Source: a virus
IMG/VR virus record: IMGVR_UViG_3300023179_000021
Span: 64,001 to 128,000 of that record
Length of the DNA: 64,000 nt
Reading direction: 5' to 3' (one strand)
A program made the position numbers and the translations under genes. A model generated the notes under the pieces. It ran no database searches and was not told where the DNA came from. It worked only from the letters and a program-made list of their open reading frames with translations. This document shows, one piece after another, positions 13,001-46,082 of this stretch (its first letter is position 1; every line of letters starts with the position of its first letter).

Positions 13001-13430
13001 AACCTTTATGAATTTTGTATTTACCTTTAGCCACATTGTACATACAACTTTCATAAAGATTATTTTCTTTACAGAATTTTTTAAGATTTTTAACCTTTTC
13101 GGTTTTACCGTCAGGAAAAGTTACTAACCAATTTTTCGAAAGTGTGTTTGCTATTTTATTTTTTTGTATTTGACTGTTTGGGATGCCTTTGTTCCAGGTT
13201 GTAATTCCTTTCAGAGCGAGACTTATTTTATCTTTAGATTCTTGTGTGTGTTTTTTGCCCAGATTAAGTTCTCTTAAGATTTGTTTTGTTGATTCGTGGA
13301 GTTTTTCTCCTTTAATTGCACCTCGATAAGACCAAACAGCATCATTTGGAATTTCTATTGGATTGTTTTTGATCCATTCACGCAGTTCTGTGGTCCAATC
13401 ATCATCTAGATTGTGAGAATAAATACTCAT
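12972..13430 (-). mobile_element. Free-standing homing-endonuclease-like gene with NUMOD3-type repeats and no obvious nuclease domain
   Basis: KKHTQESKDKISLALKG, WNKGIP and NLKKFCKENNL motifs; likely ATG at 13430 (MSIYSH) preceded by AAGGA; the only credible minus-strand gene in the window. Confidence 0.65.
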
Positions 13431-13508
13431 GCTGACATTCCTTACTAATGTTAGAGTGGGTGCAGACGGCAATCTGGCGACCCACACCTATATATGCCGT
13501 TAAAACTC

Positions 13509-13537
13509 TTGACAAATTACATATATATTAGTATAGT
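13509..13537 (+). promoter_or_regulatory. Sigma70 promoter driving the tRNA-like RNA
   Basis: TTGACA(13509)-17 nt-TATAGT(13532); predicted start a few nt before 13546. Confidence 0.75.
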
Positions 13538-13545
13538 CCAAATAT

Positions 13546-13611
13546 GCGGTGAGTCCGAGACAGCTTACCTTCCCAGTAGGCAGAGAGGTTTAACTCCTCT
13601 GAACCGCTCCA
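13546..13611 (+). tRNA. Non-canonical tRNA-Gly(UCC)-like RNA with a minimal D arm
   Basis: GCGGT/ACCGC acceptor stem + T-CCA; anticodon arm GCTTAC-CTTCCCA-GTAGGC; T arm AGAGG-TTTAACT-CCTCT; D arm reduced to GTC-CGA-GAC. Confidence 0.75.
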
Positions 13612-13615
13612 CTTC

Positions 13616-13697
13616 TGTTGTATAAAAACAACAAAAAAGTTTAATGAAATCAATGACTTACAAAGCGCTTGACAAATCACTGCGGCTAGAGTAAGAT
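13616..13697 (+). promoter_or_regulatory. Promoter region: TGTTG-N8-CAACA palindrome, IHF-consensus site and sigma70 promoter
   Basis: Palindrome 13616-13633; AATCAATGACTTA (WATCAANNNNTTR) 13648-13660; TTGACA(13669)-17 nt-TAAGAT. Confidence 0.6.
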
Positions 13698-13725
13698 GGT
13701 AACATAAATCATTACGGATATCGAT

Positions 13726-16062
13726 ATGTCATTTACTGCTGAACAAAAATCGCAACTTGCCAAACTGATGGCGACCGAGAATTTGACGGTTCAACACCAG
13801 AAAATTTCAACAGCCAAATTTGATCCTAAAAACCGTGTATTGTATCTCCCAATCTGGCAGGATATGTCTGGTGATCTTTATGATCTCTTGGCAGGCCATG
13901 AAGTTGGTCATGCTCTTCATACTCCCGCTGAAGGTTGGCACAATGCTGTAGTTGACAAAACAAAGCCTGCTTCATACAAAAACTTTTTGAATGTCGTTGA
14001 AGATGCTCGTATTGAGAAAAAAGTAAAGCGCCGGTATCCTGGTCTTCGCTTGCCTTTTCAGAGAGCATATAAAGAGCTTTTCGACCGTGATTTTTTTGGT
14101 ATTCGGAACCGTGACCCTAATAAATTGCCTTTTATCGACCGTTTGAATATTTACTCAAAGTCACAATACACTGCTTCGTTCCTTGAATTCAATGAGCGTG
14201 AACTTGATTTTGTTGATAGAATTCAAAAAACTGAAAGCTGGGATGATGTTGTTGCCTTGACCAATGAAATTTTCGAATACTCAAAGGAAGAGCAATCTCA
14301 AATCCAACATACTGATTTTGATCCAGACAATTATGGTGAAGATGGTTTTGATGAAGATTCCGCTTTTGATGAAGTTGACCAAGATGAAGATGGTCAAAGT
14401 CAAAACGGTACCAAGTCTAAGGCTGGTGATGAAAACGAAGGTGATGAATCGGAAGCCGAGGGTGATGGTGGTGCCGATGGTTCAAATGACAAAGGCGAAA
14501 CTGGTGAATCTAAAGGTTCTCGGCTGAATCGTTTCAAGGACTCGGAGGAATCTGATGAAGATCAATTTGAGCCAGAATGTATTACTGATGAAAACTTCCG
14601 TAAAAATGAAGACTTATTGCTTGATGCACAAAGCAAACCTTTTGTTTATGTAAATGTGCCAAAATTCAATGCGAAACATAGCATCACGCCAGCAAGCCGT
14701 GTGGTCGAACAAATCAATGATTATTATACAAAAGGATTTTCGCTCACGGAAGTTCTATCTGCGGCTGATATCCAAAAATTGATCGGCGATTTCAAAAATC
14801 GAAATGAACGGTATATTGGTTTACTTGCTAAAGAATTTGAAATGCGTAAAGCTGCCAAAGCTTTTAGTAAGTCTAAGTTGTCCGACACCGGCGATATTGA
14901 TGTTGCTAAACTTTCATCTTACCAGTTTGATGACAACATTTTCCGCAAAGTGATGTTGACACCAAAAGGTAAAAATCATGGTCTTATGTTGTTACTTGAC
15001 AAATCGGGTTCCATGGCCGATAACATGCCTGGTTCAATTGAACAGATTTTGATTCTTGCTATGTTTTGTCGCAAAGTGAATATCCCGTTTGTGGTGTACG
15101 GATTCGGTAGTTCCTATCGTGCTCGGAAGACTGATTTTCCTGGAGAGTACCTTAAGAATGATGATGGTTCGGGAAAAGTTTTTTCTGCTCATAGCAATGA
15201 TCTCCGTTTCAGTGAAGTTTATCTCCGTGAGTATCTAAATTCAAGCATGTCAAACATGGAATTTATGTCGGCTGTCAAAGCTTTGTTGTTACTCAAGCGG
15301 TCATTTGAAATGAAATGGCGCTCCAGTCGGCCCGATTCAGAAGATTTATCGAATACTCCGTTGACCGAGGCTGTATTTGCTTGCACTCATTTGATGCAAA
15401 AATTCCGCCAAAAACACAACCTAGACCTTTCAAGTTTGGTGGTTGTACATGATGGTGATTCAGACTCTATTGGTTCTTTTTATCAACAAAGTGAACCTGG
15501 ATTGAGTAAGTACACCAACAGTTTCAGTACAATTATTCATAACGTGATTGTTCAGGATCGCCAAAACAAATTTGAGTATAAGTTGAAAACTCCTGATCCT
15601 TCGAAGGCTCACTTTGATCCAATGCTTCTGTGCGCTATTGAGTATTTCAAACAGCTAAGTAATTCAAAGGTGTTTGGTTTCTTCTTGACAAGCGGCAGTC
15701 GTGGTAGTGCAAAGGCTTCAATTATGAACCGCTATGTGTTTGACGATGGCGAAAACTTTGAATCTCTTGAAAAGAAAGCTTTCAGAAGCCATAACTATAA
15801 TGAAAAAGCTCGTGTCAATCAACAATTAGATTTGATGGTGAAGAAGTTTAAAGCTGAGAAGTTCCTGATCAGCAAACCAAAAGGCTACAATGAATTTTAT
15901 ATTGTGGCTGGTGGTGATGAATTGGTTACCGAGGCTGATGAAATGGAAATCGAAGGCAAAGTGACCTCATCCAAATTGAAAGCCGCCTTTTTAAAGATGA
16001 ACAAAAAGAAAGCCATCAATCGTGTTTTGGTCTCCCGTTTCATCCAGGGCATTGCCGCCTGA
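13726..16062 (+). CDS. CobT-like VWA protein with an N-terminal HExxH metallopeptidase-like domain
   Basis: HEVGH, NVVEDARIE, acidic linker, MIDAS DKSGS, TPL and HDGD. Confidence 0.85.
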   Translation: MSFTAEQKSQLAKLMATENLTVQHQKISTAKFDPKNRVLYLPIWQDMSGDLYDLLAGHEVGHALHTPAEGWHNAVVDKTKPASYKNFLNVVEDARIEKKVKRRYPGLRLPFQRAYKELFDRDFFGIRNRDPNKLPFIDRLNIYSKSQYTASFLEFNERELDFVDRIQKTESWDDVVALTNEIFEYSKEEQSQIQHTDFDPDNYGEDGFDEDSAFDEVDQDEDGQSQNGTKSKAGDENEGDESEAEGDGGADGSNDKGETGESKGSRLNRFKDSEESDEDQFEPECITDENFRKNEDLLLDAQSKPFVYVNVPKFNAKHSITPASRVVEQINDYYTKGFSLTEVLSAADIQKLIGDFKNRNERYIGLLAKEFEMRKAAKAFSKSKLSDTGDIDVAKLSSYQFDDNIFRKVMLTPKGKNHGLMLLLDKSGSMADNMPGSIEQILILAMFCRKVNIPFVVYGFGSSYRARKTDFPGEYLKNDDGSGKVFSAHSNDLRFSEVYLREYLNSSMSNMEFMSAVKALLLLKRSFEMKWRSSRPDSEDLSNTPLTEAVFACTHLMQKFRQKHNLDLSSLVVVHDGDSDSIGSFYQQSEPGLSKYTNSFSTIIHNVIVQDRQNKFEYKLKTPDPSKAHFDPMLLCAIEYFKQLSNSKVFGFFLTSGSRGSAKASIMNRYVFDDGENFESLEKKAFRSHNYNEKARVNQQLDLMVKKFKAEKFLISKPKGYNEFYIVAGGDELVTEADEMEIEGKVTSSKLKAAFLKMNKKKAINRVLVSRFIQGIAA

Positions 16063-29640: not shown

Positions 29641-30991
29641 GGAATTTACTCGTAAAGTATTGCCATTTATTCAATCAGAATATTTCGCCGACAACAAAGA
29701 TAAAACACTTTTTAACTTTGTTTCACAATTTGTCAATAAATATAAAACATTGCCAACTTATGAATCTCTTGTTATTGAATTAAATAACTCAAAAAAACTT
29801 ACCGATCAAGAATTAAAAAATACTTTAAATTTACTTGATGAAATAAATCAAAACAAAAGCGAGCCTACAGAGTTACAGTGGTTAATTGAACAAACCGAAA
29901 AGTTTTGCCAAGACAAGGCGATTTATAATGCCATTATGGAATCGGTAACAATACTTGATTCTAAAAACACAAACAAGGACAAGGGTGAAATCCCTAAGTT
30001 ATTATCAAATGCGCTTGGTGTTTCTTTTGATTCTCATATTGGCCACGATTATATTAATGACTACGATTCCCGTTTCGAATTTTACCACCGACAAGAAACT
30101 AGAATATCATTTGATTTAGACCTTTTTAATACAATCACCAAAGGTGGTCTACCAAATAAAACACTCAATATTTGTCTTGCTGGGACCGGCGTTGGCAAAT
30201 CAATGTTTATGTGTCATGTGGCTGCATCTTGTTTATCTCAGGGCTTGAATGTTCTTTATATTACACTTGAGATGGCCGAAGAAAGAATCGCCGAGCGTAT
30301 TGATGCCAATCTTTTAAATGTATCAATGAACGATCTACATTCTATGACAAAATTGGAGTATGATCGTAAGTTTCAATCATTGCGAAATAAAACACAAGGC
30401 AAACTTATCATCAAAGAATATCCAACGGCGGCAGCCAATGCACTACACTTTCGTTCGTTGCTAAATGAATTGCACCTTAAAAAGAATTTCGTGCCGCAAA
30501 TTATCTTTATTGATTATCTGAATATCTGTTCTTCGGCTCGCATTAAACCTGGTGCCAATGTTAATTCTTATTCTTATATCAAGGCGATTGCAGAAGAACT
30601 CCGTGGTCTTGCTGTTGAATTTAATTTACCTATTGTTTCAGCGACACAAACAACAAGGTCGGGCTATACAAACACTGACATTGGTCTTGAAGATACTTCC
30701 GAATCTTTTGGTCTGCCTGCAACCGCTGATTTTATGTTTGCTCTAATTTCAACAGAAGAATTAGAACAATTAAATCAAATCATGGTCAAACAATTAAAGA
30801 ATCGATATGCTGATCCAAATTTTAATAAAAGGTTTGTAATCGGCGTTGATCGTTCGAAGATGAAGTTGTATGATGTTGAACAATTGGCACAAACTGGTAT
30901 TGTAGATTCTGGCCAAGATGATCCGCCGCTAAATACTTTTGGAAACCGTGAAAGTAAATTCAATCGTAAGTTTGAAGGCTTTAAAGTATGA
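29597..30991 (+). CDS. gp41: Replicative helicase gp41
   Basis: AGTGVGKS, IFIDYL, SATQTTR, SESFGLPATAD and KQLKNRY motifs. Confidence 0.97.
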   Translation: MRLETSILKNLIFNEEFTRKVLPFIQSEYFADNKDKTLFNFVSQFVNKYKTLPTYESLVIELNNSKKLTDQELKNTLNLLDEINQNKSEPTELQWLIEQTEKFCQDKAIYNAIMESVTILDSKNTNKDKGEIPKLLSNALGVSFDSHIGHDYINDYDSRFEFYHRQETRISFDLDLFNTITKGGLPNKTLNICLAGTGVGKSMFMCHVAASCLSQGLNVLYITLEMAEERIAERIDANLLNVSMNDLHSMTKLEYDRKFQSLRNKTQGKLIIKEYPTAAANALHFRSLLNELHLKKNFVPQIIFIDYLNICSSARIKPGANVNSYSYIKAIAEELRGLAVEFNLPIVSATQTTRSGYTNTDIGLEDTSESFGLPATADFMFALISTEELEQLNQIMVKQLKNRYADPNFNKRFVIGVDRSKMKLYDVEQLAQTGIVDSGQDDPPLNTFGNRESKFNRKFEGFKV

Positions 30992-32103
30992 AACTGAATA
31001 AAGAACAGGCGCTTCATTGCGCTGAAGCCTTTTCTAATTATTTTGACCGATTTGGCCGTATTGATGATTACATTCGTGACCAGAAACTAAATTCATTATC
31101 TTCAAGGCCGACTACTCTACCTGGGATGGGACCCGAAGAAGATTTATTTTCTGATTTTACCATGCACCCAAACGACATGAATTTGGAGTTGGTCGAATTG
31201 CCTCAGGACAGTTGGGACATTTATTTAAATATGATTTCTTCTCATTCAAATATGACCAGTATTCCAGGCCGGTGTTTTCGTTTGGCTGTTCTCGAAAAGA
31301 ACACAAATAAATGGGTTGGTTTTATTCGCCTTGGTTCACCAGTTATCAACATGAAACCACGAAATGAACTTCTTGGTGGAGTATTTACACAAACAAAAGA
31401 ATCAGCCAGAGCCTTCAATCAAACAACTATCATGGGTTTCGTAATTGTGCCATCGCAGCCATTTGGTTATAATTATCTTGGTGGTAAATTATTGGCGGCC
31501 ATTTGTTGCTCTCATTGGGTTCGTGAGCAGTTGAACAAGAAGTATGATATGAATACTTGTATGTTTGAAACAACCAGTCTCTATGGTACATCGAAATCTT
31601 CATCGCAATATGACGGTATGAAGCCCTTTTTGAGGTTTAGTGGTCTTACCGACTCCGATTTTCTGCCAATGATGCACGGTAAACCTTATGAAGAACTCAA
31701 AGACTATGTTGAAAATGCTGTTGGTGTTATTGTGCCACCTGAAGCCTCTAGTCGTAAACTTAAAATTTCAAATAAAATTATCAGTATGACCAAAGTGGCT
31801 CTAAAAGGTGAACCAGAATACGGCAAATTTATAACAACGATTCAAAACGCATTGTCTTTGACTGAAAAGAAACGATATTATTATTCAAACTACGGCTTCT
31901 CCAACTTTACAGATGTGGTGATGGGCCGCGCAGATAAGTTGGTGCCAGACAAGGAGAATTATGATAAGTTTCGCCTCGACAACATTATTAACTGGTGGAA
32001 GAAAAAGGCTACAAATCGTTTTGAAAATCTAAAGGCTGAGAATAGACTCCGAACAGAAATAGAAGTTTGGACTGGTGAAAAAGAGCTTGACATTATTCGG
32101 TAA
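30988..32103 (+). CDS. DUF4338/DruA-like, Mom-related GNAT-fold protein, copy 2
   Basis: IVPSQPFGYNYLGGKLLAAIC and ETTSLYG...SQYDG motifs; ATGA overlap with the gp41 stop. Confidence 0.65.
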   Translation: MKLNKEQALHCAEAFSNYFDRFGRIDDYIRDQKLNSLSSRPTTLPGMGPEEDLFSDFTMHPNDMNLELVELPQDSWDIYLNMISSHSNMTSIPGRCFRLAVLEKNTNKWVGFIRLGSPVINMKPRNELLGGVFTQTKESARAFNQTTIMGFVIVPSQPFGYNYLGGKLLAAICCSHWVREQLNKKYDMNTCMFETTSLYGTSKSSSQYDGMKPFLRFSGLTDSDFLPMMHGKPYEELKDYVENAVGVIVPPEASSRKLKISNKIISMTKVALKGEPEYGKFITTIQNALSLTEKKRYYYSNYGFSNFTDVVMGRADKLVPDKENYDKFRLDNIINWWKKKATNRFENLKAENRLRTEIEVWTGEKELDIIR

Positions 32104-32112
32104 TTAAGGTAA

Positions 32113-32120
32113 TATAAATA
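32113..32120 (+). promoter_or_regulatory. T4-type late promoter TATAAATA
   Basis: Exact consensus; marks the switch from replication genes to late genes. Confidence 0.75.
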
Positions 32121-32130
32121 CTCCAAAACA

Positions 32131-33474
32131 ATGGAGTATCAGATGACCCCAGCAGACTTAAAGAAAGAAGCAGGTAAAGGACCGTATAAAGGAGTTCCAA
32201 GAACACAAATTTTCAAACTTAAAATAGAGGATGGAAAACCTTTTACTTTAAATAACGGTCAAAAAGTTCAAGGTACAAAATGGGATGAATCTAATTACAC
32301 ACTATATGTTGGTTCTCGTAAAATATCTCTAAAAGAAATAAAGAAAGATCCAGATTTTGGTGGAGGTGGTTCTGGTGCTGGTGCTGATGTTACTGCGATT
32401 GTAGAATGTGGCCAAGCTCTAGTTTGTTCATTAGTTTATAATGTAATGAGGCGTGAAATAAAATGGGAAAATTTAACAATGGAAGGATTACAAGAGGCTT
32501 TAAAATATTGTTATCTTTCTGACAGCCTTGATGCTATCATTGAAAGATCACCCGCCGAATGGGTACAGTCTTATGTTAAATCGGCGAATATTTTATATAG
32601 AAATTATAAGATGATGGGTTCACCTGTGTATTTTCATCGTGGTTCTAAGTTTATGGATGAGATTTATGCTAGTAAGAAAATTGTTTATGATGCTGATAAG
32701 AAGTCTGATAATCCGCAAGCACCAGGCTCATTCTCTGACGATAAATGGAACCCAGGCGATATATGGATGACAACATTGAAACAAGTTCCATCAATTAGTA
32801 GTGATTCTTGGTCAAATTTAAATAAAGACATTTATGATTTAGCTCGTGCTAAAAAACTAATAGGTGTTTCATTGAAGAAGGTTGGAGCTACGGCACATAT
32901 TGAAGAGTATAATGCTCTAAGTACGAAACAAACTAAAGATTATAATTATGGTGGTTTCCGTGTTTCGTCGGCATCGGAACGAGGTCCTTTACCTCCATTT
33001 TTTAATTCAATTGATTTGTACATGAAAGTTGGTGAAAAAGAAATTCAGTTTAGAGCCACATCAGGTTCTGCTGGCTGGCAAGGCGAGATAAAGGGTGCCA
33101 CTGCTGCAGGTGGTAAAATTGGTGGAGGTAATGTGAACTTCTTTTTGAAAAAGTATACTGGTCGTGGTGTTTTCAATAAAGAAGAAAAAGAAGTCATAGA
33201 TTTCACAAAGTCTAAAGATTTTTTTCCAGAATTTTACGAGCTCTATAAAAAACATTTTGATGGTAAAATTTTACCTTATGAAGATTTTGTGATTAATGCT
33301 AACAAGAAACAAAAGGAATCGGCTGGTTATCTCTTCTCTAAATATATCAACATGAAATTTATTGATATATTTTTAAGTGCAAACGCTCAAACTAGAAACA
33401 AAATTGCAACTGAATTTTTAAGATATGCAGCTTCAAACATAGATCAAAGTTCCTTTTTTGTAAAGATATCCTAA
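32131..33474 (+). CDS. Putative PD-(D/E)xK nuclease-fold protein
   Basis: AIVE...DKWNPGDIW...IGVSLKK pattern. Confidence 0.5.
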   Translation: MEYQMTPADLKKEAGKGPYKGVPRTQIFKLKIEDGKPFTLNNGQKVQGTKWDESNYTLYVGSRKISLKEIKKDPDFGGGGSGAGADVTAIVECGQALVCSLVYNVMRREIKWENLTMEGLQEALKYCYLSDSLDAIIERSPAEWVQSYVKSANILYRNYKMMGSPVYFHRGSKFMDEIYASKKIVYDADKKSDNPQAPGSFSDDKWNPGDIWMTTLKQVPSISSDSWSNLNKDIYDLARAKKLIGVSLKKVGATAHIEEYNALSTKQTKDYNYGGFRVSSASERGPLPPFFNSIDLYMKVGEKEIQFRATSGSAGWQGEIKGATAAGGKIGGGNVNFFLKKYTGRGVFNKEEKEVIDFTKSKDFFPEFYELYKKHFDGKILPYEDFVINANKKQKESAGYLFSKYINMKFIDIFLSANAQTRNKIATEFLRYAASNIDQSSFFVKIS

Positions 33475-33971
33475 TGTACTTCAAAGAATTTTTAAACGAA
33501 GCAAAAGAGGGTGCTAATTTACATTTAGAACATTTAGAAGATAATGTGCTTAATCGTGGTACAAATGGTGCTCGTGAAGCTATTAATTTTCTTCGTTCGC
33601 TTCGTGACATGTTGGCCGGCCATGCACAATCAAAAACAAATGTTACCACAAAATGGGACGGTTGTATTAGAGAAGATACTATTTTAAAAACAAACTATGG
33701 TGAAATGACAATAAAAGAATTACATGAAAAATTTCTATCTTTAGAAAATGTTAAAATTATGGCTAAAGATTTAAAATCAGAAATACCGATTGATAAAATG
33801 GTTTCTGTTTTAAATACTTATTGTAACGATGGAAATAAATCGTGGGTTGAAATAGAAGTAGAAAATGGAAGTAGCATATTTGTAACAGAAGATCATAAAA
33901 TACATACAACGAATAGAGGTTGGATTGAAGCTGTAAAATTGAATGTGGGTGATGATATAACCGAACTATAA
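33474..33971 (+). CDS. N-half of a fractured ligase-fold (DUF6267-like) protein: 63-aa N-extein + 102-aa IntN
   Basis: HLEHLED...TTKWDG followed by CIREDT (intein block A, Cys1 at 33663) and VTEDHKI (block B TxxH). Confidence 0.9.
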   Translation: MYFKEFLNEAKEGANLHLEHLEDNVLNRGTNGAREAINFLRSLRDMLAGHAQSKTNVTTKWDGCIREDTILKTNYGEMTIKELHEKFLSLENVKIMAKDLKSEIPIDKMVSVLNTYCNDGNKSWVEIEVENGSSIFVTEDHKIHTTNRGWIEAVKLNVGDDITEL

Positions 33972-33992
33972 AATTAGACGGTATTCATCTCA

Positions 33993-34033
33993 ATTTTTCT
34001 TTTTTTATAAATAAAATAAAGGAGAAAAATATG
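33993..34033 (+). promoter_or_regulatory. Late promoter embedded in an RBS-sequestering hairpin
   Basis: ATTTTTCTTTTTT can pair with AAAGGAGAAAAAT; TATAAATA at 34006-34013 lies between the arms. Confidence 0.75.
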
Positions 34034-34687
34034 AAAATTAATGTAATTACGGAAGAAATTAGGAACCTAATTATAGAAACTTATAAACAAGAATATTCTG
34101 TTTCTAAAGTTATGGAAAAGTGTCCGAAAGGAATAGGGCGAAAAAGAGTTGAAAAAATATTAAAAGATGTTAATGTTTATGAGGGATTAAACGGTAAAAA
34201 TTATTTAAAGAAAAAAGTTGAAAATCATGAAAAATTAATGATGGAAAAATATGGCGTTATTAATTGGGGACAAACGAAAAACGGTGGTTACAGAAGTCAA
34301 AACAAAATACCATATAAAAAAATAAGTTTTTTAACCGATGACTATAAAAAATATAGACTTTTAGTGGAAAAAGAAACTGAAAAAAATATAAAAAAGTTTT
34401 TTAAAACATATCCAAAATATTGTTATTATACAAAAATTTTATTTGCCGATGAAGAGGGTCCTGTGAATCCAAATGATCCTAGAAAAAGAAGTGTGGATCA
34501 TAAAGTGCCAGTTTTACATTGTTATTTAAATAATATTGATGTGGAAAAAGCTTCTAGTATTGACAATATTATTTTTGTTTTGCGTTATGTAAATGCTGTA
34601 AAAGGACAAACTTTAGAGGAATCTTTTCTACCAATCGTGGAAAAAATAAGAAAGGTTTTTATAAATGAAGGTTTTAAAAGTAAATAG
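34031..34687 (+). mobile_element. Free-standing HNH homing endonuclease between the split intein halves
   Basis: SVDHKVP...NIIFVLRYVNAVKG (HNN-type motif), MEKYGV motif; very AT-rich. Confidence 0.8.
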
Positions 34688-35819
34688 ATTAAGTGAAAAA
34701 TATAAACAATATGATTTATCTACAGAAACAGAAAATTTCTTTGTGAAACTCGGAGAAGTTTGGGGGTTAATTCATAATTCACCCGCTGTGATTTGTGGTA
34801 TTAATCCAGACAATGGTAAATTCTTCGTTGGCACCAAATCAGTATTCAATAAAGAGGGTAAACTAAATTATACCGACGCTGATATTGATAAGAACCATCC
34901 TGGTGAAGGCCTCAATGATAAGCTGAAGATAGCACTTGCATATTTACCAAAACTAGGCATCAAAGGTATCATTCAAGGTGACATGATGTTTACAAAAGGT
35001 GATATAAAGAAACAAACAATCGACGGTCAATCCTATGCTACCTTTCAACCAAATACGATTGTTTATGCCGTACCTTCTGATTCTGTTATGGCACAAAAGA
35101 TGATGGCTGCACAACTTGGTATTGTTTTTCATACCACATACAATGGCCGTTCAATGAAAACCCTTAAGGCCTCATTTAACATTGATATTGGACATCTCAC
35201 GCCAACCAAAGATGTATGGTTTCGTGATGCTTCTTTTGTTGATGCTTCAGGTACAGCAACATTTACTGAACAAGAAACAAAGAAATTATCTGATGTTCTT
35301 TCCAATGCCGGCCGAGTGTTTCAGTCTATTAATTCATCGGTACTTAATCGCATATCAACTAACGAAACTTTTAACCTTTATATCAAAACATTCAATAATA
35401 CCAAAGTTCGTTCTGGTGAACCAATTAAGAATACCCAACAACACACTACACAACTGATAAAATGGATTGAAGATAAACTGAATAAAGAAATATTGGCGGC
35501 CAAGAAAGAAGACACTAAGAAAAAACGAATCGGTGAAAAAAATGAGGTCATGCGTTTCTTTCGAGGCAATGCTATACAACTAAAAAGTATATTTGACCTA
35601 ATGAATCTAATTGTTGATGCAAAAGTTATGATTGTTCGTAAATTAGAAACAATTAAATCTTCAATTGATACATTTGTTGTAACACCAGATGGTTTTAAGG
35701 TAACTGGTCCCGAAGGGTTTGTTTGCGTGGATAGAATTTCTGGTGGTGCATTGAAGTTGATTGACCGTATGGAGTTCAGTAAAAACAATTTCAATGCTGC
35801 TAAGGCATGGAGTAAATAA
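34665..35819 (+). CDS. C-half of the fractured protein: 38-aa IntC + 346-aa C-extein
   Basis: QYDLSTETENFF (block F), LIHN|S (block G; Asn 34776-34778, Ser+1 34779); extein SPAVICG, QGDMMF, EGFV and LKLIDR. Confidence 0.9.
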   Translation: MKVLKVNRLSEKYKQYDLSTETENFFVKLGEVWGLIHNSPAVICGINPDNGKFFVGTKSVFNKEGKLNYTDADIDKNHPGEGLNDKLKIALAYLPKLGIKGIIQGDMMFTKGDIKKQTIDGQSYATFQPNTIVYAVPSDSVMAQKMMAAQLGIVFHTTYNGRSMKTLKASFNIDIGHLTPTKDVWFRDASFVDASGTATFTEQETKKLSDVLSNAGRVFQSINSSVLNRISTNETFNLYIKTFNNTKVRSGEPIKNTQQHTTQLIKWIEDKLNKEILAAKKEDTKKKRIGEKNEVMRFFRGNAIQLKSIFDLMNLIVDAKVMIVRKLETIKSSIDTFVVTPDGFKVTGPEGFVCVDRISGGALKLIDRMEFSKNNFNAAKAWSK

Positions 35820-36102: not shown

Positions 36103-36423
36103 ATGATACAAATTACCGAAAAAGCTTTTAAACAAATCCATGAAATTATGATTGAAGAAGATACCAATGAGGCACTAAGAGTGTTTGTTCAAGGTGGTGG
36201 TTGTTCTGGTTTTCAATATGGGTTTACATTTGATGAAAACCAAGCTGATGATGATTTTGTTATTGAACAGGATGGTGTTAGAGTTCTTGTTGATGCGGCT
36301 TCAATGACATATCTTAGTGGTGCAGAAATTGATTATAAGAAAGATTTAACTTCGGCACAATTCGTTATTAAAAACCCCAACGCAACTAATACTTGTGGTT
36401 GCGGTTCTTCTTTTGCAGCATAA
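36103..36423 (+). CDS. erpA: A-type Fe-S carrier ErpA/IscA
   Basis: [17 protein letters not shown] and [12 protein letters not shown] motifs. Confidence 0.9.
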
Positions 36424-36424
36424 T

Positions 36425-36814
36425 ATGGCATACTCAGAAAAAGTTTTAGATCATTATGAAAATCCTCGTAATGTGGGATCATTTGCTAAAGAAATAAAAC
36501 GTATTGGCACAGGTATGGTTGGTGCTCCAGCCTGTGGTGATGTGATGAAACTACAAATACAGGTAAATGATGATGGTATCATTACGGATGCTAAATTTAA
36601 AACATATGGATGTGGTTCAGCGATTGCGTCTAGTTCGCTCGTTACGGAATGGGTCAAAGGTAAAACTCTCGACGAGGCCTGCACTATTCGCAATACTCAA
36701 ATTGCAGAAGAACTTGCGCTACCACCCGTTAAGATACACTGCTCCATATTGGCAGAGGATGCGATCAAAGCCGCAATAAAAGATTTTCGTGATAAACATG
36801 AAGGAACAACATGA
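36425..36814 (+). CDS. iscU: Fe-S scaffold IscU
   Basis: MAYSEKVLDHYENPRNVG, GAPACGD, GCGSAIASSS and LPPVKIHCS motifs. Confidence 0.95.
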   Translation: MAYSEKVLDHYENPRNVGSFAKEIKRIGTGMVGAPACGDVMKLQIQVNDDGIITDAKFKTYGCGSAIASSSLVTEWVKGKTLDEACTIRNTQIAEELALPPVKIHCSILAEDAIKAAIKDFRDKHEGTT

Positions 36815-43169: not shown

Positions 43170-46082
43170 ATGAGATTCCTAGAGTTCTTAATTGAACAAA
43201 AAGAAAAACATGCAGTTTTAGCTTTTGGTCGTATGAATCCAATTACGACGGGGCATGAAAAACTAGTTGAAGCTGTTAAATCCATAGCGAAAAAGTATGG
43301 TGCAACGCCATATATTGTAGTTTCACATTCGCAAGATTCAAAGAAAAACCCACTTTCGGCTCAACAAAAACTCCAGTACGCTAAAAAGTTCTTTCTTGGC
43401 GTAAACTTTTCAGCTTCAGATAAAGTGTCACCAAATATTTTTTCTCAAGCTTCAAAACTTTACAAAATGGGATATACTCATCTTCATGTTGTTGGTGGTT
43501 CTGATCGTGTCGATGAATATAAAAATATCATGAACAAATATAATAATGTTAAAGGTTCTCATGGTTTTTATAATTTTAAAAACATTATGGTTCATTCAGC
43601 TGGTGAAAGAGATCCTGATGCGAAGGGCACTGAGGGCATGTCAGCATCAAAAATGCGTGAAGCTGCTAAAAACAATGATTTTAAAACATTTCGCAAAGGT
43701 GTTCCAAGTCATGCTACAGAATCGGATGCAAAAGGATTATTTAATGATGTAAGACATGGAATGGGTCTTAAAGAGAGTATTGATTTTGATTTTGAAGAAA
43801 TGTTTTTAGAGGGTGTCCATGATAAAAGTATTTTCAAGGCCGTTTTTCTTGCCGGTGGTCCAGGGTCTGGTAAAGATTATGTACTAGACAATACATTAAG
43901 TGGCCATGGGTTGACCGAGATTAATTCGGATAAAGCCTTTGAATATCTCATGGACAAAAAGAATTTAGATATGAAAATGCCCGAAAGTGAGAAAGAAGCT
44001 CGTGATGTTGTTCGTGGTAGAGCTAAATCTATGACTGAACTACGCGAAAGATTAGCTCTTCTTGGTCGTAATGGTGTAATTATCAATGGCACTGGTGATG
44101 ACCCAGAAAAAATCGCAAGAATTAAACAACGTCTTGAGCAAATTGGCTATGAAACAAGAATGATTATGGTAAATACTCGTGATGAAGTTTCGGCATCAAG
44201 AAATGTAGAAAGGGGGCAACGTGGTGGTCGTACAGTGCCAGAAAAGATTCGTAAACAAAAGTGGGATTCTGTGCAGGCTGCCAGGCCAGAACTCGCTAAA
44301 CTTTTTGGTGATAATTATACTGAATTTGATAACTCGGAAGATTTAAGAACAGCCAGACCCGAGATTGTACAACAAAAGAAACAAGAAATGTTGGATCTTT
44401 ATAAAAGTGTACAAAAATTTGTAACAAAACCACCCAAAAATGATGTGTCAAAAGAATGGATTGCAAGCGAATTACAGAAAGCCGATGTACAAAAAATTGA
44501 TACGAAGAAAGAAGTAGCGCCACATGAAGGATCCAAAGCAGCAGAAGAGGCACGAAGAATGGGCCTTAAATATTATGGTTTTGGCCGATATGGAAAAGAT
44601 GGTAAAGTAACTCATCGTGTTATACATGATAAATTGACCGATGTAAGTAAATCTGCTCAACAAGAACCTGCTGCAAGAGAAGCTATAAGAACAATTGCAG
44701 CGGCTGGTTCAAGTGGTTCAAATATTACTCCAAGGCAAAAAGAAAAACTTAAAACACTTATGAGTAAATCGAAATTGCCAAAATTAAAAGAAGAAAATGA
44801 ACCAAGAATACCTAAAAAACCTGGGCAACCAGATAAGTCGGATAAACATTCTGATTTATATACCGATGAAGAACCAAGAGGTACGATTCATGGGTTGAAA
44901 TTTGCTACAAAAGAAGATGCTGAAGAAAGTGTAAGAAAAATTAAATCAAGTGATCGTTCACATGCACATAAAATACAAGCAGCTGTTGCTATGGAGCAAA
45001 GAGCAAGAGTTATGGGTAAAGATTCTGCAGCTGCCGTTTATCGAAAGTTTATAAATTCTATGAAAGAATCATTTGAAAATACTGATGAAGAATTCGAAAA
45101 TTTATTTTCTGAAGATTTGCGTCAATGGTTTAACCCATCTCATCCAAAAGGTGGTTGGAAAAGAGTTAACAGTAAAGGTGAAGTTATTGGTCCTTGTGCT
45201 CGTGAACCTGGTGAGGGTAAACCAAAATGTTTATCTAATGAAAAAATTGGTAGTTTATCTAAAAAAGAACGTGCTGCGGCTTTTCGTGCAAAAAGAAAGT
45301 ATGATCCAAATCCAGAACGCCAAGGTAAACCAATTAATGTATCAAACTTTGGCAAAGGTAAATTATCAGAATCTTATGATTTGACAGATTCAAGCGCACT
45401 TAATATTTTACTCTTAGGTAATCGTATTGATGAAATTGATTTAGACGATAACTATATACAGTTTGAAGAAAAAAAATATTTAAAAGATTCTAGCGGAAAA
45501 ATTCGTGTGTTTATGTTACGAAGAGCCGCAACAAAAGAAGCACACACTAAAAACGGAACAGTCATACCATATAAAAATGGTTATATTGTCCAACTAAACG
45601 AGGAGACTTATCATGGGAATTCTACAATTCCTGAAAGACATATTTTGGGTGAACAAATCGAACTCAGAGAAACCACATCCGCTGGACCCACTTACTTTAC
45701 CGAAACAAGAGCCCGCCTTAGAGAGTACGCCGAGCTTACCACAGGTCAAGAATATGCCAGAGGAGAAGGAATCACCAGTGCCGGAACAGAAGCGCCAGCC
45801 GCAGGCACAAAAATCACCCTCGCCAAAATCAGGCAACGGCAGAAGGAAGCCAAAGTCAAAGAATCTATCGACAAGGGCATAGAACCGGGTCTTTCAATGT
45901 CGGCTTCTGGTGAAAATGCTGGGCGACCATCTTTAAAAACAAAACAAAATAAAAAACCTTTTGAAGAGGCAATTGGTGCTGGTGGTGAAGATGCAAATTC
46001 AATTGGTGCTAAAAAAGAAGATGAACTAAAAAAAGTGGGAATTAGTTTAACAACATTCAAAGCAAAAAGGCCAATAGGATGA
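43170..46082 (+). CDS. Multidomain late protein: cytidylyltransferase-like + P-loop (zeta-like) kinase + small modules
   Basis: AFGRMNPITTGH...MSASKMR; LAGGPGSGK; N-terminal MRFLEFLIE; late-promoter variant ACTAAATA at 43127. Confidence 0.8.
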   Translation: MRFLEFLIEQKEKHAVLAFGRMNPITTGHEKLVEAVKSIAKKYGATPYIVVSHSQDSKKNPLSAQQKLQYAKKFFLGVNFSASDKVSPNIFSQASKLYKMGYTHLHVVGGSDRVDEYKNIMNKYNNVKGSHGFYNFKNIMVHSAGERDPDAKGTEGMSASKMREAAKNNDFKTFRKGVPSHATESDAKGLFNDVRHGMGLKESIDFDFEEMFLEGVHDKSIFKAVFLAGGPGSGKDYVLDNTLSGHGLTEINSDKAFEYLMDKKNLDMKMPESEKEARDVVRGRAKSMTELRERLALLGRNGVIINGTGDDPEKIARIKQRLEQIGYETRMIMVNTRDEVSASRNVERGQRGGRTVPEKIRKQKWDSVQAARPELAKLFGDNYTEFDNSEDLRTARPEIVQQKKQEMLDLYKSVQKFVTKPPKNDVSKEWIASELQKADVQKIDTKKEVAPHEGSKAAEEARRMGLKYYGFGRYGKDGKVTHRVIHDKLTDVSKSAQQEPAAREAIRTIAAAGSSGSNITPRQKEKLKTLMSKSKLPKLKEENEPRIPKKPGQPDKSDKHSDLYTDEEPRGTIHGLKFATKEDAEESVRKIKSSDRSHAHKIQAAVAMEQRARVMGKDSAAAVYRKFINSMKESFENTDEEFENLFSEDLRQWFNPSHPKGGWKRVNSKGEVIGPCAREPGEGKPKCLSNEKIGSLSKKERAAAFRAKRKYDPNPERQGKPINVSNFGKGKLSESYDLTDSSALNILLLGNRIDEIDLDDNYIQFEEKKYLKDSSGKIRVFMLRRAATKEAHTKNGTVIPYKNGYIVQLNEETYHGNSTIPERHILGEQIELRETTSAGPTYFTETRARLREYAELTTGQEYARGEGITSAGTEAPAAGTKITLAKIRQRQKEAKVKESIDKGIEPGLSMSASGENAGRPSLKTKQNKKPFEEAIGAGGEDANSIGAKKEDELKKVGISLTTFKAKRPIG
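45613..45882 (+). CDS. Putative overprinted small gene in another frame inside 43170..46082
   Basis: AGGAG at 45601-45605, 7 nt before the ATG; amphipathic start MGILQFLKDIFW; Pro/Lys-rich tail. Confidence 0.5.
   Translation: MGILQFLKDIFWVNKSNSEKPHPLDPLTLPKQEPALESTPSLPQVKNMPEEKESPVPEQKRQPQAQKSPSPKSGNGRRKPKSKNLSTRA

Follow-up and report, generated by a model that had tools for sequence, protein, structure and literature searches.

Why should a conserved phage gene be found as two open reading frames (ORFs) with a nuclease gene between them? The question is raised by a 64,000-nucleotide stretch of viral DNA (hereafter the window), which corresponds to positions 64001-128000 of the 145,640-bp IMG/VR virus record IMGVR_UViG_3300023179_000021. 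The completeness of this record is estimated at 83%, and its closest cultured relatives are T4-like myoviruses of the Kyanoviridae type (Methylophilales phage Melnitz, Pelagibacter phage HTVC008M, and many cyanomyoviruses). An earlier note, made from the sequence alone, had claimed here a fractured gene, with the halves of a naturally split intein carried by two ORFs around a free-standing HNH endonuclease gene. All three ORFs were found where it had placed them, on the + strand, at 33474-33971, 34031-34687, and 34665-35819. With a probability of roughly 85%, the locus is explained by a mobile cassette, consisting of a split class 1 intein and a helix-turn-helix (HTH)-HNH homing-endonuclease gene, that interrupts the DUF6267 gene of an uncultured T4-like aquatic myovirus.

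The first ORF encodes 165 amino acids, of which 63 form an N-terminal extein (33474-33662, +) that starts with the leader MYFKEFLNE and ends in KWDG, and 102 form the N-terminal intein half (IntN; 33663-33971, +, stop codon included). It reads ...TTKWDG|CIREDT... at the junction and holds ...VTEDHKI... within IntN. The third ORF (384 amino acids) begins MKVLKV... with the 38-residue C-terminal intein half (IntC; 34665-34778, +), reads ...LIHN|SPAVICG, and continues as a C-terminal extein of 346 amino acids plus stop codon (34779-35819, +), whose first residue is Ser+1 (codon TCA). The endonuclease gene between them (34031-34687, +; 218 amino acids) is separated from the IntN stop codon by a spacer of 59 nucleotides, overlaps the start of IntC by 23 nucleotides, and lies in a different frame from the two outer ORFs, which share one. 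Joined, the exteins amount to 63 + 346 = 409 amino acids, the length that the note had given for the spliced product and exactly that of an intein-free allele, the metagenomic protein P0121.

Profile matches far beyond chance confirmed that the exteins are two parts of one DUF6267 gene. Positions 1-47 of Pfam DUF6267 (PF19782) match residues 15-63 of the first ORF (E-value (E) 4e-14), and positions 48-376 match residues 39-380 of the third (E 6.5e-92). The profile is split at 47|48, and the break therefore falls exactly at the proposed intein junction. PHROG 455 is divided between the outer ORFs in the same manner, and tblastn places the two extein pieces directly next to each other in the Melnitz phages (13290-13475 and 13473-14525). 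Over its residues 1-63, P0121 is 100% identical to the N-extein, and it shares about 98% identity with the C-extein, with KWDG|APAV at the junction. Contiguity of intein-free homologues across this point, predicted by the earlier note, was indeed observed, as KWDG-APA and rarely as KWDG-SPA. Among 57 such homologues, obtained by translation of IMG/VR loci, the junction is K[WF]DG-A in 52 and KWDG-S without an intein in three (L051, L052, and L054; KWDG-SPA, codon TCG), and two, both truncated ORFs, show no junction motif. The three empty alleles with KWDG-SPA could be footprints left by precise intein loss or pre-adapted targets. DUF6267 is present in 461 phage records, mainly cyanomyoviruses, and is single-copy in the 145.6-kb record studied here.

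The pieces inserted between these exteins match profile models of inteins. Residues 64-144 of the first ORF align with positions 1-82 of TIGR01445, the curated NCBIfam model for the intein N-terminal splicing region, at 32.4 bits versus a cut-off of 24.5; the match begins at profile position 1, which falls on Cys64 of the ORF, and hence on the residue predicted to be Cys1 (33663-33665). Pfam Intein_splicing (PF14890) matches the two halves in the correct order, with profile positions 2-92 on the N-terminal half (E 2.8e-6) and 122-148 on the C-terminal half (E 0.054). A PF14890 profile search of the phage's own genome gave no match, a limit of sensitivity, since hmmscan does match the N-terminal half. 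By sequence, the nearest solved structure to IntN is the NrdJ-1 intein (8ubs; E 1.1e-6, residues 5-99). IntC alone found no match as a sequence query of the PDB. The best PDB matches of a six-sequence IntC profile were mainly C-terminal segments of inteins with a final HN (three VMA inteins, the Neq Pol IntC, and NrdJ-1). Both halves are thus matched by an intein model, as the note had anticipated, although PF14890 stays below its gathering score.

Conservation points in the same direction. When six loci with extein identities of only 24-64% are compared, Cys1, the block-B T..DH residues (T75, D77, and H78, within T75-E-D-H78 of the window), the block-F Asp (D17 of IntC in the window), the terminal His-Asn pair (His37-Asn38), and Ser+1 are all invariant, as is the entire stretch LIHN|SPA. 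The +1 codon specifies Ser (TCN or AGT) in all occupied alleles and Ala (GCN) in nearly all empty ones, a single-base difference. The net charge of IntN ranges from -7 to -15 among the loci and that of the first 15 residues of IntC from +1 to +5 (-7 and +4 in the window). The opposite charges of IntN (acidic) and of the start of IntC (basic) agree with what is described for naturally split inteins, whose halves go through a step of electrostatic capture (PMC11923092). Residues, profiles, and extein contiguity agree, and they support the assignment of the inserted pieces to a class 1 naturally split intein with the full set of catalytic residues; judged from its sequence, the cassette is very probably functional.

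These residues also bear on the alternative that the intein halves merely dock the DUF6267 fragments to each other non-covalently, as a clasp that no longer splices, in the manner of the dead intein relics carried by some phage genes that an endonuclease gene has split. The Aeh1 nrdA protein offers a precedent, as it functions in two pieces without an intein (cited in PMC2677866). Here, however, Cys1, TxxH, the block-F Asp, His-Asn, and Ser+1 are all intact and invariant across diverged loci, and the change from Ala to Ser at +1 occurs only in intein-bearing alleles, a restriction that only a working nucleophile would explain. A purely non-covalent association is thus improbable, and trans-splicing by the split intein is preferred.

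The gene lodged between the intein halves encodes a protein with an N-terminal three-helix HTH/Myb-like DNA-binding domain (approximately residues 1-50) and a C-terminal HNH domain (approximately residues 97-216). A profile search of 1.84 billion representatives yielded 347 relatives, and the only columns invariant in 56 aligned diverse relatives are D156, H157, N179, N188, and K191; as a sequence pattern (DH..N..N..K), this is an HNH signature. PHROG 1035 ('endonuclease VII') matches the window protein with E 4e-7, and Pfam DUF7487 matches 16 of the 56 relatives. The AlphaFold model (mean predicted local distance difference test (pLDDT) 96.5) was matched by Foldseek to the Gme HNH nicking endonuclease (4h9d, probability 0.97), PacI (0.96), ScoMcrA, and the HNH domain of Cas9, all at E ~0.1. 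VIA-align superimposed residues 106-216 on PacI (Z 6.4, 99 residues), gave Z 6.0 over 92 residues for the Gme HNH enzyme, and aligned residues 1-50 with the DNA-binding domain of GcrA (Z 7.2). The HNH profile retrieved only noise from the PDB, and tblastn of the protein against cultured phages found no close relative, with one weak match, to a metagenomic megaphage listed under two accessions. Invariant motif and predicted fold thus argue that the middle gene encodes an HNH nuclease, as had been proposed.

The arrangement is not confined to the window. The DUF6267 split intein was found in about 26 IMG/VR contigs, representing about 17 sequence types, and the protein collection contains about 50 clusters of N-terminal halves with both extein and intein. 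In the IMG/VR scan, the single IntN sequence retrieved one distant locus only, and an IntN alignment was required. Most loci keep the same layout: an IntN stop codon, a spacer of 47-66 nucleotides, the endonuclease gene, and an overlap of 23-47 nucleotides with IntC. This recurrence is informative about a further explanation, in which the true element would be one uninterrupted intein that includes an HNH domain in frame, and the stop codons would stem from sequencing or assembly errors. Such in-frame HNH inteins do exist in phages (cited in bioRxiv 10.1101/2025.01.02.630785), but the HNH gene of the window uses another frame and has a Shine-Dalgarno sequence (SD), promoter box, and 59-nucleotide spacer of its own, and the identical three-gene architecture in many independent contigs therefore rules against an assembly artefact. 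No contiguous (cis) intein was detected at the DUF6267 site among proteins of 290-2000 amino acids, where only N-terminal halves with long N-terminal extensions appeared; the search was word-based, so that this absence is weak evidence. An erroneous break in a contiguous intein is hardly credible for this locus.

The cassette appears to be mobile. Intein, HNH protein, and exteins show incongruent identities: 48% (extein), 78% (intein), and 46% (HNH) between L069 and L076; 50%, 76%, and 74%, respectively, between L004 and L006; and 64%, 51%, and 50% between the window and L076. These figures imply that the intein was transferred among diverged host alleles; the endonuclease gene may have followed a separate history. 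The exteins of the window are 98% identical to an empty allele, versus at most about 75% (C-terminal halves) to any occupied allele, which points to a recent gain of the cassette. Loss is also documented. The endonuclease gene is frameshifted in L093, reduced to a 132-amino-acid remnant in L107, and absent from L079, L087/L088/L097, and L106, where the halves are still separate ORFs. In L079 (1893-2343), the final 17 codons of the endonuclease gene (..PLIPVLKRAFDEDC) form the end of the IntN ORF, and the gene itself is intact in the relative L076 (3501-4621); this fusion is direct evidence that the form without endonuclease arose by internal deletion. From these three variants it follows that the split form persists after the loss of that gene.

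Empty, nuclease-decayed, and nuclease-less alleles reveal turnover of the element, as would be expected if invasion had killed the DUF6267 gene of the window and left its pieces heading for loss. Such decay is nevertheless very improbable here, given that none of the three ORFs is disrupted, extein identity to an intact allele reaches 98-100%, the layout is retained in the contigs counted above, and DUF6267 is conserved throughout the phage records that contain it. Moreover, nonsynonymous divergence (dN) lies far below synonymous divergence (dS) in both intein and HNH gene; the closest pair gives dN/dS ratios of about 0.08 (IntN) and about 0.10 (HNH), values that are rough with dS saturated.

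The predicted regulatory signals of the locus would fit a fractured gene that is expressed late. The box TATAAATA, which resembles a T4-type late promoter and may act as one, lies at 32113-32120 (+), 10 nucleotides upstream of the ORF at 32131-33474, whose stop codon overlaps the start codon of the N-terminal half (TAATG); it is the probable promoter for that half. A second copy of TATAAATA (34006-34013) sits in the loop of a predicted RNA hairpin in the spacer (33990-34034, +; minimum free energy -9.5 kcal/mol, z -3.2), the U-rich 5' arm of which pairs with the endonuclease SD (GGAG, 34021-34024). The spacer copy is invariant across six diverged loci, and the rest of the spacer is poorly conserved. 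In single-sequence folds, the SD is paired in five of the six loci; these folds were used because RNAalifold, run on the six loci, did not recover the SD-sequestering hairpin on account of indels. What RNAalifold did recover is a short conserved hairpin directly after the IntN stop codon (33977-33989, +), with five pairs, including one that shows a compensatory change, and one mismatch in the 5-bp stem of the window; it may be terminator-like or serve RNA processing. By analogy, control in the spacer is predicted to resemble that of T4-family free-standing endonuclease genes, which combine a late promoter with a hairpin hiding the ribosome-binding site (Gibb and Edgell, cited in PMC2677866).

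The saturation of dS is one of several points that weigh against the explanation favoured here. PF14890 scores below its gathering threshold on both intein halves (27.7 and 13.7 bits versus 35.8), and the single IntC matches in the PDB each reach only E ~0.1, which is attributable to a query of only 42 residues. Pfam HNH (PF01844) does not match the window endonuclease, and its match to the homologue in L015 is weak (E 0.065). As for the regulatory signals, TATAAATA shows no enrichment in the window, with 4 occurrences versus 6.4 expected, and the predicted hairpin leaves the SD uncovered in L009 and covers it only partly in L069. Finally, with a record that is about 83% complete, a second intact DUF6267 copy outside the sequenced part is conceivable.

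From the features described, we infer the following course of expression, splicing, and homing for the split intein cassette. Translation of the N-terminal half would be coupled to that of the upstream late gene, and the endonuclease gene would be served by its own late-promoter box, placed in the loop of the hairpin that hides its ribosome-binding site; if the site is hidden in this way, synthesis of the endonuclease would be confined to late, promoter-proximal transcripts. Translation of the C-terminal half would start at the ATG within the last 23 nucleotides of the endonuclease gene. IntN, which is acidic, would then bind to IntC through the basic start of the latter, and the two would fold into a Hint domain, in which Cys1, the block-B Thr and His, the terminal His-Asn, and Ser+1 would perform protein trans-splicing. 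The expected product is a 409-amino-acid enzyme with the junction KWDG-SPAV, from which the predicted tryptic junction peptide is WDGSPAVICGINPDNGK. In mixed infections, the HNH enzyme would cut intein-free alleles (KWDG-APA), and repair would copy the cassette into them; the incongruent identities and the side-by-side occurrence of empty, full, and decayed alleles support such homing indirectly.

What kind of protein would be restored by splicing is suggested by a structural model of the intein-free allele that was computed from 29 aligned sequences (pLDDT 83.5). Its best matches among known structures are RNA and DNA ligases, with Z of 8.8-7.0 over 160-187 aligned residues at about 10-14% identity. 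They include the Naegleria RNA ligase NgrRnl (5cot, Z 8.8), Trypanosoma brucei REL1 (1xdn, Z 8.3), T4 Rnl2 (1s68/2hvq, Z 7.7-7.6), Trl1, T4 Rnl1 (9do4), and many ATP-dependent DNA ligases. Most of the non-helical structural matches are ligases or capping enzymes, and Foldseek ranked ATP-dependent DNA ligases first (E ~0.02). The middling scores are explained by a helical insertion of about 130 residues (approximately 223-357) that interrupts the DUF6267 domain. In the 29 homologues, K60, D62, and G63 of motif I, Q129-G130-D131, E375-G376, and K389 are invariant; the N-extein ends in motif I, and the C-extein carries the QGD, EG, and K elements. Searches of the PDB with the third ORF and with the DUF6267 profile returned only noise, with no sequence-level match to a solved ligase. 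On the strength of the model, DUF6267 is predicted to be an RNA/DNA-ligase-like nucleotidyltransferase.

In the ligase superfamily, KxDG is motif I and carries the nucleotidyl-acceptor lysine; the intein therefore sits directly after it, and insertion at this point is a typical active-site position for inteins. Hence, the view of the earlier note that the host is an unusual intein target does not hold if the model is right, as the host would rather be a ligase-fold enzyme cut at KxDG. Conversely, the insertion site after KWDG strengthens the prediction of a ligase-like nucleotidyltransferase and marks KWDG as the functional core of the uncharacterised DUF6267. Like the ATP-dependent RNA and DNA ligases, DUF6267 has KxDG at the expected place and invariant QGD, EG, and K; unlike the solved ligases, with which it shares only the low identity and middling Z given above, it contains the helical insertion. 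The intein host of actinophages annotated as a 'nucleotidyltransferase' is a Pol-beta-type protein and does not belong to DUF6267.

Fractured genes with split inteins, which the earlier note had called known, have been a published type since 2009 (Dassa, London, Stoddard, Schueler-Furman and Pietrokovski, 2009; PMC2677866) and comprise gp41-1, gp41-8, NrdJ-1, IMPDH-1, NrdA-2, and others. As in those loci, the gene that the split intein interrupts is that of a conserved phage enzyme and is cut within a conserved motif, three ORFs lie on the same strand, and the carriers are T4-like aquatic phages. It also has a short, hairpin-bearing spacer before the endonuclease gene (27-51 nucleotides in the published loci), an overlap of that gene with the IntC start (6-69 bp there, 23 nucleotides here), and intein halves of about 100 (IntN) and 38 (IntC) amino acids. 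Variants without endonuclease are likewise known from both sets (gp41-7 there; L079, L087, and L106 here). In contrast, DUF6267 is not among the eight enzyme types named as hosts in that study, in which one locus has an unnamed host beside nrdB, and the endonuclease is of the HTH-HNH type instead of GIY-YIG or Vsr-like; HNH cases were predicted there, but none had been seen.

Two further systems invite comparison. As in NrdJ-1 (8ubs, 9omb), the intein is of class 1, begins with Cys1, and is split at the same site, which is the position of endonuclease insertion; unlike in NrdJ-1, the host and insertion site are others and the +1 residue is Ser, and the relation is distant, resting on E-values and not on high identity. 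The Aeh1 locus nrdA-a/mobE/nrdA-b and I-TevI are similar in that a free-standing HNH-type gene lies between the halves of a host gene and in the late box and hairpin, which are predicted here. The Aeh1 nrdA halves, however, have no intein and assemble non-covalently, whereas intact intein halves are present in the window. No paper mentioning DUF6267 was found, nor any on this intein, on DUF6267 as an intein host, or on an HNH gene between split-intein halves.

With the present locus, an HTH-HNH family would join the endonucleases that break intein genes, a type predicted in 2009 and unobserved then. This one gene family displays all stages of the life cycle of such an element (empty, empty with Ser+1, intact, frameshifted, remnant, and clean deletion), and these stages, including the deletion in L079, support the gene-breaking model of 2009. 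The new natural split-intein variants, all of them Cys1/Ser+1 and distant from NrdJ-1, are candidate orthogonal tools for protein ligation.

Other intein-like sequences were observed in the course of the searches. In the 149.6-kb contig of L004, a second, weak IntN-like match (L004:64-192; 35% identity over 43 amino acids) is located about 4 kb upstream of the cassette in DUF6267 and may be a further intein in another gene. Related IntN sequences (28-37% identity) occur in other phage genes (L108, L110, L112, and others), for example after ...SNLC| in ribonucleotide-reductase-like proteins. The IntN of the window is also 32% identical to the end of gp114 of Salmonella phage S16, annotated as 'ATP-dependent DNA helicase' (L120, HQ331142.1, 104626-107352); gp114 is followed by a hypothetical gene for 291 amino acids, gp114.1, and then by gp115 (UvsW). 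By sequence, gp114/gp115 looks like a fractured uvsW gene in a cultured Tevenvirinae phage and its relatives.

The N-extein leader MYFKEFLNE follows the pattern MxxFxxFLxE with an invariant Glu and is disordered in the model; a leader of this kind is shared by at least two other ORFs of the window. We take it to resemble a T4-style capsid-targeting sequence, a motif assumed by us; a review supports the concept but not the motif. It is possible, although rather unlikely, that the leader targets DUF6267 to the capsid, so that a ligase-like enzyme would be packaged in the head and injected, with label and body joined only by trans-splicing. If so, the N-terminal half would be an address label and the C-terminal half the body of the enzyme, and splicing would gate both the formation of the active site and delivery in the virion. 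Fusions, in other loci, of the DUF6267 N-terminal part to cytidylyltransferase-like or Pol-beta-like domains would fit a packaged enzyme of nucleic-acid repair or modification.

Long N-terminal extensions and similar leaders were noted in several proteins. A 970-amino-acid ORF of the window (43170-46082, +) opens with MRFLEFLIE, a leader of the type found on the DUF6267 N-extein, followed by a cytidylyltransferase-like GRMNPITTGHE motif. In L091:938-1969 and L092:2763-3794, a similar leader and a cytidylyltransferase-like domain are fused before the DUF6267 N-terminal part and IntN, and cyanophage records annotate a cytidyltransferase beside DUF6267. Extensions of about 260-330 amino acids precede KWDG|C in P0253 and P0257 (424-427 amino acids), in L093:707-2005, and in the N-terminal half of L015; a G-S...SGDLD-type stretch within them recalls, at the level of sequence motifs, Pol-beta-type nucleotidyltransferases.

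Among the neighbours of the fractured gene, the ORF at 30988-32103 (+), two genes upstream, matches Pfam DruA (Druantia; E 1.1e-10) and PHROG 19197 (E 2.5e-139). Just downstream, at 36103-36814 (+), two small ORFs have, from their translations alone, the look of an IscA/HesB-like protein (...CGCGSSF) and of an IscU-type Fe-S scaffold.

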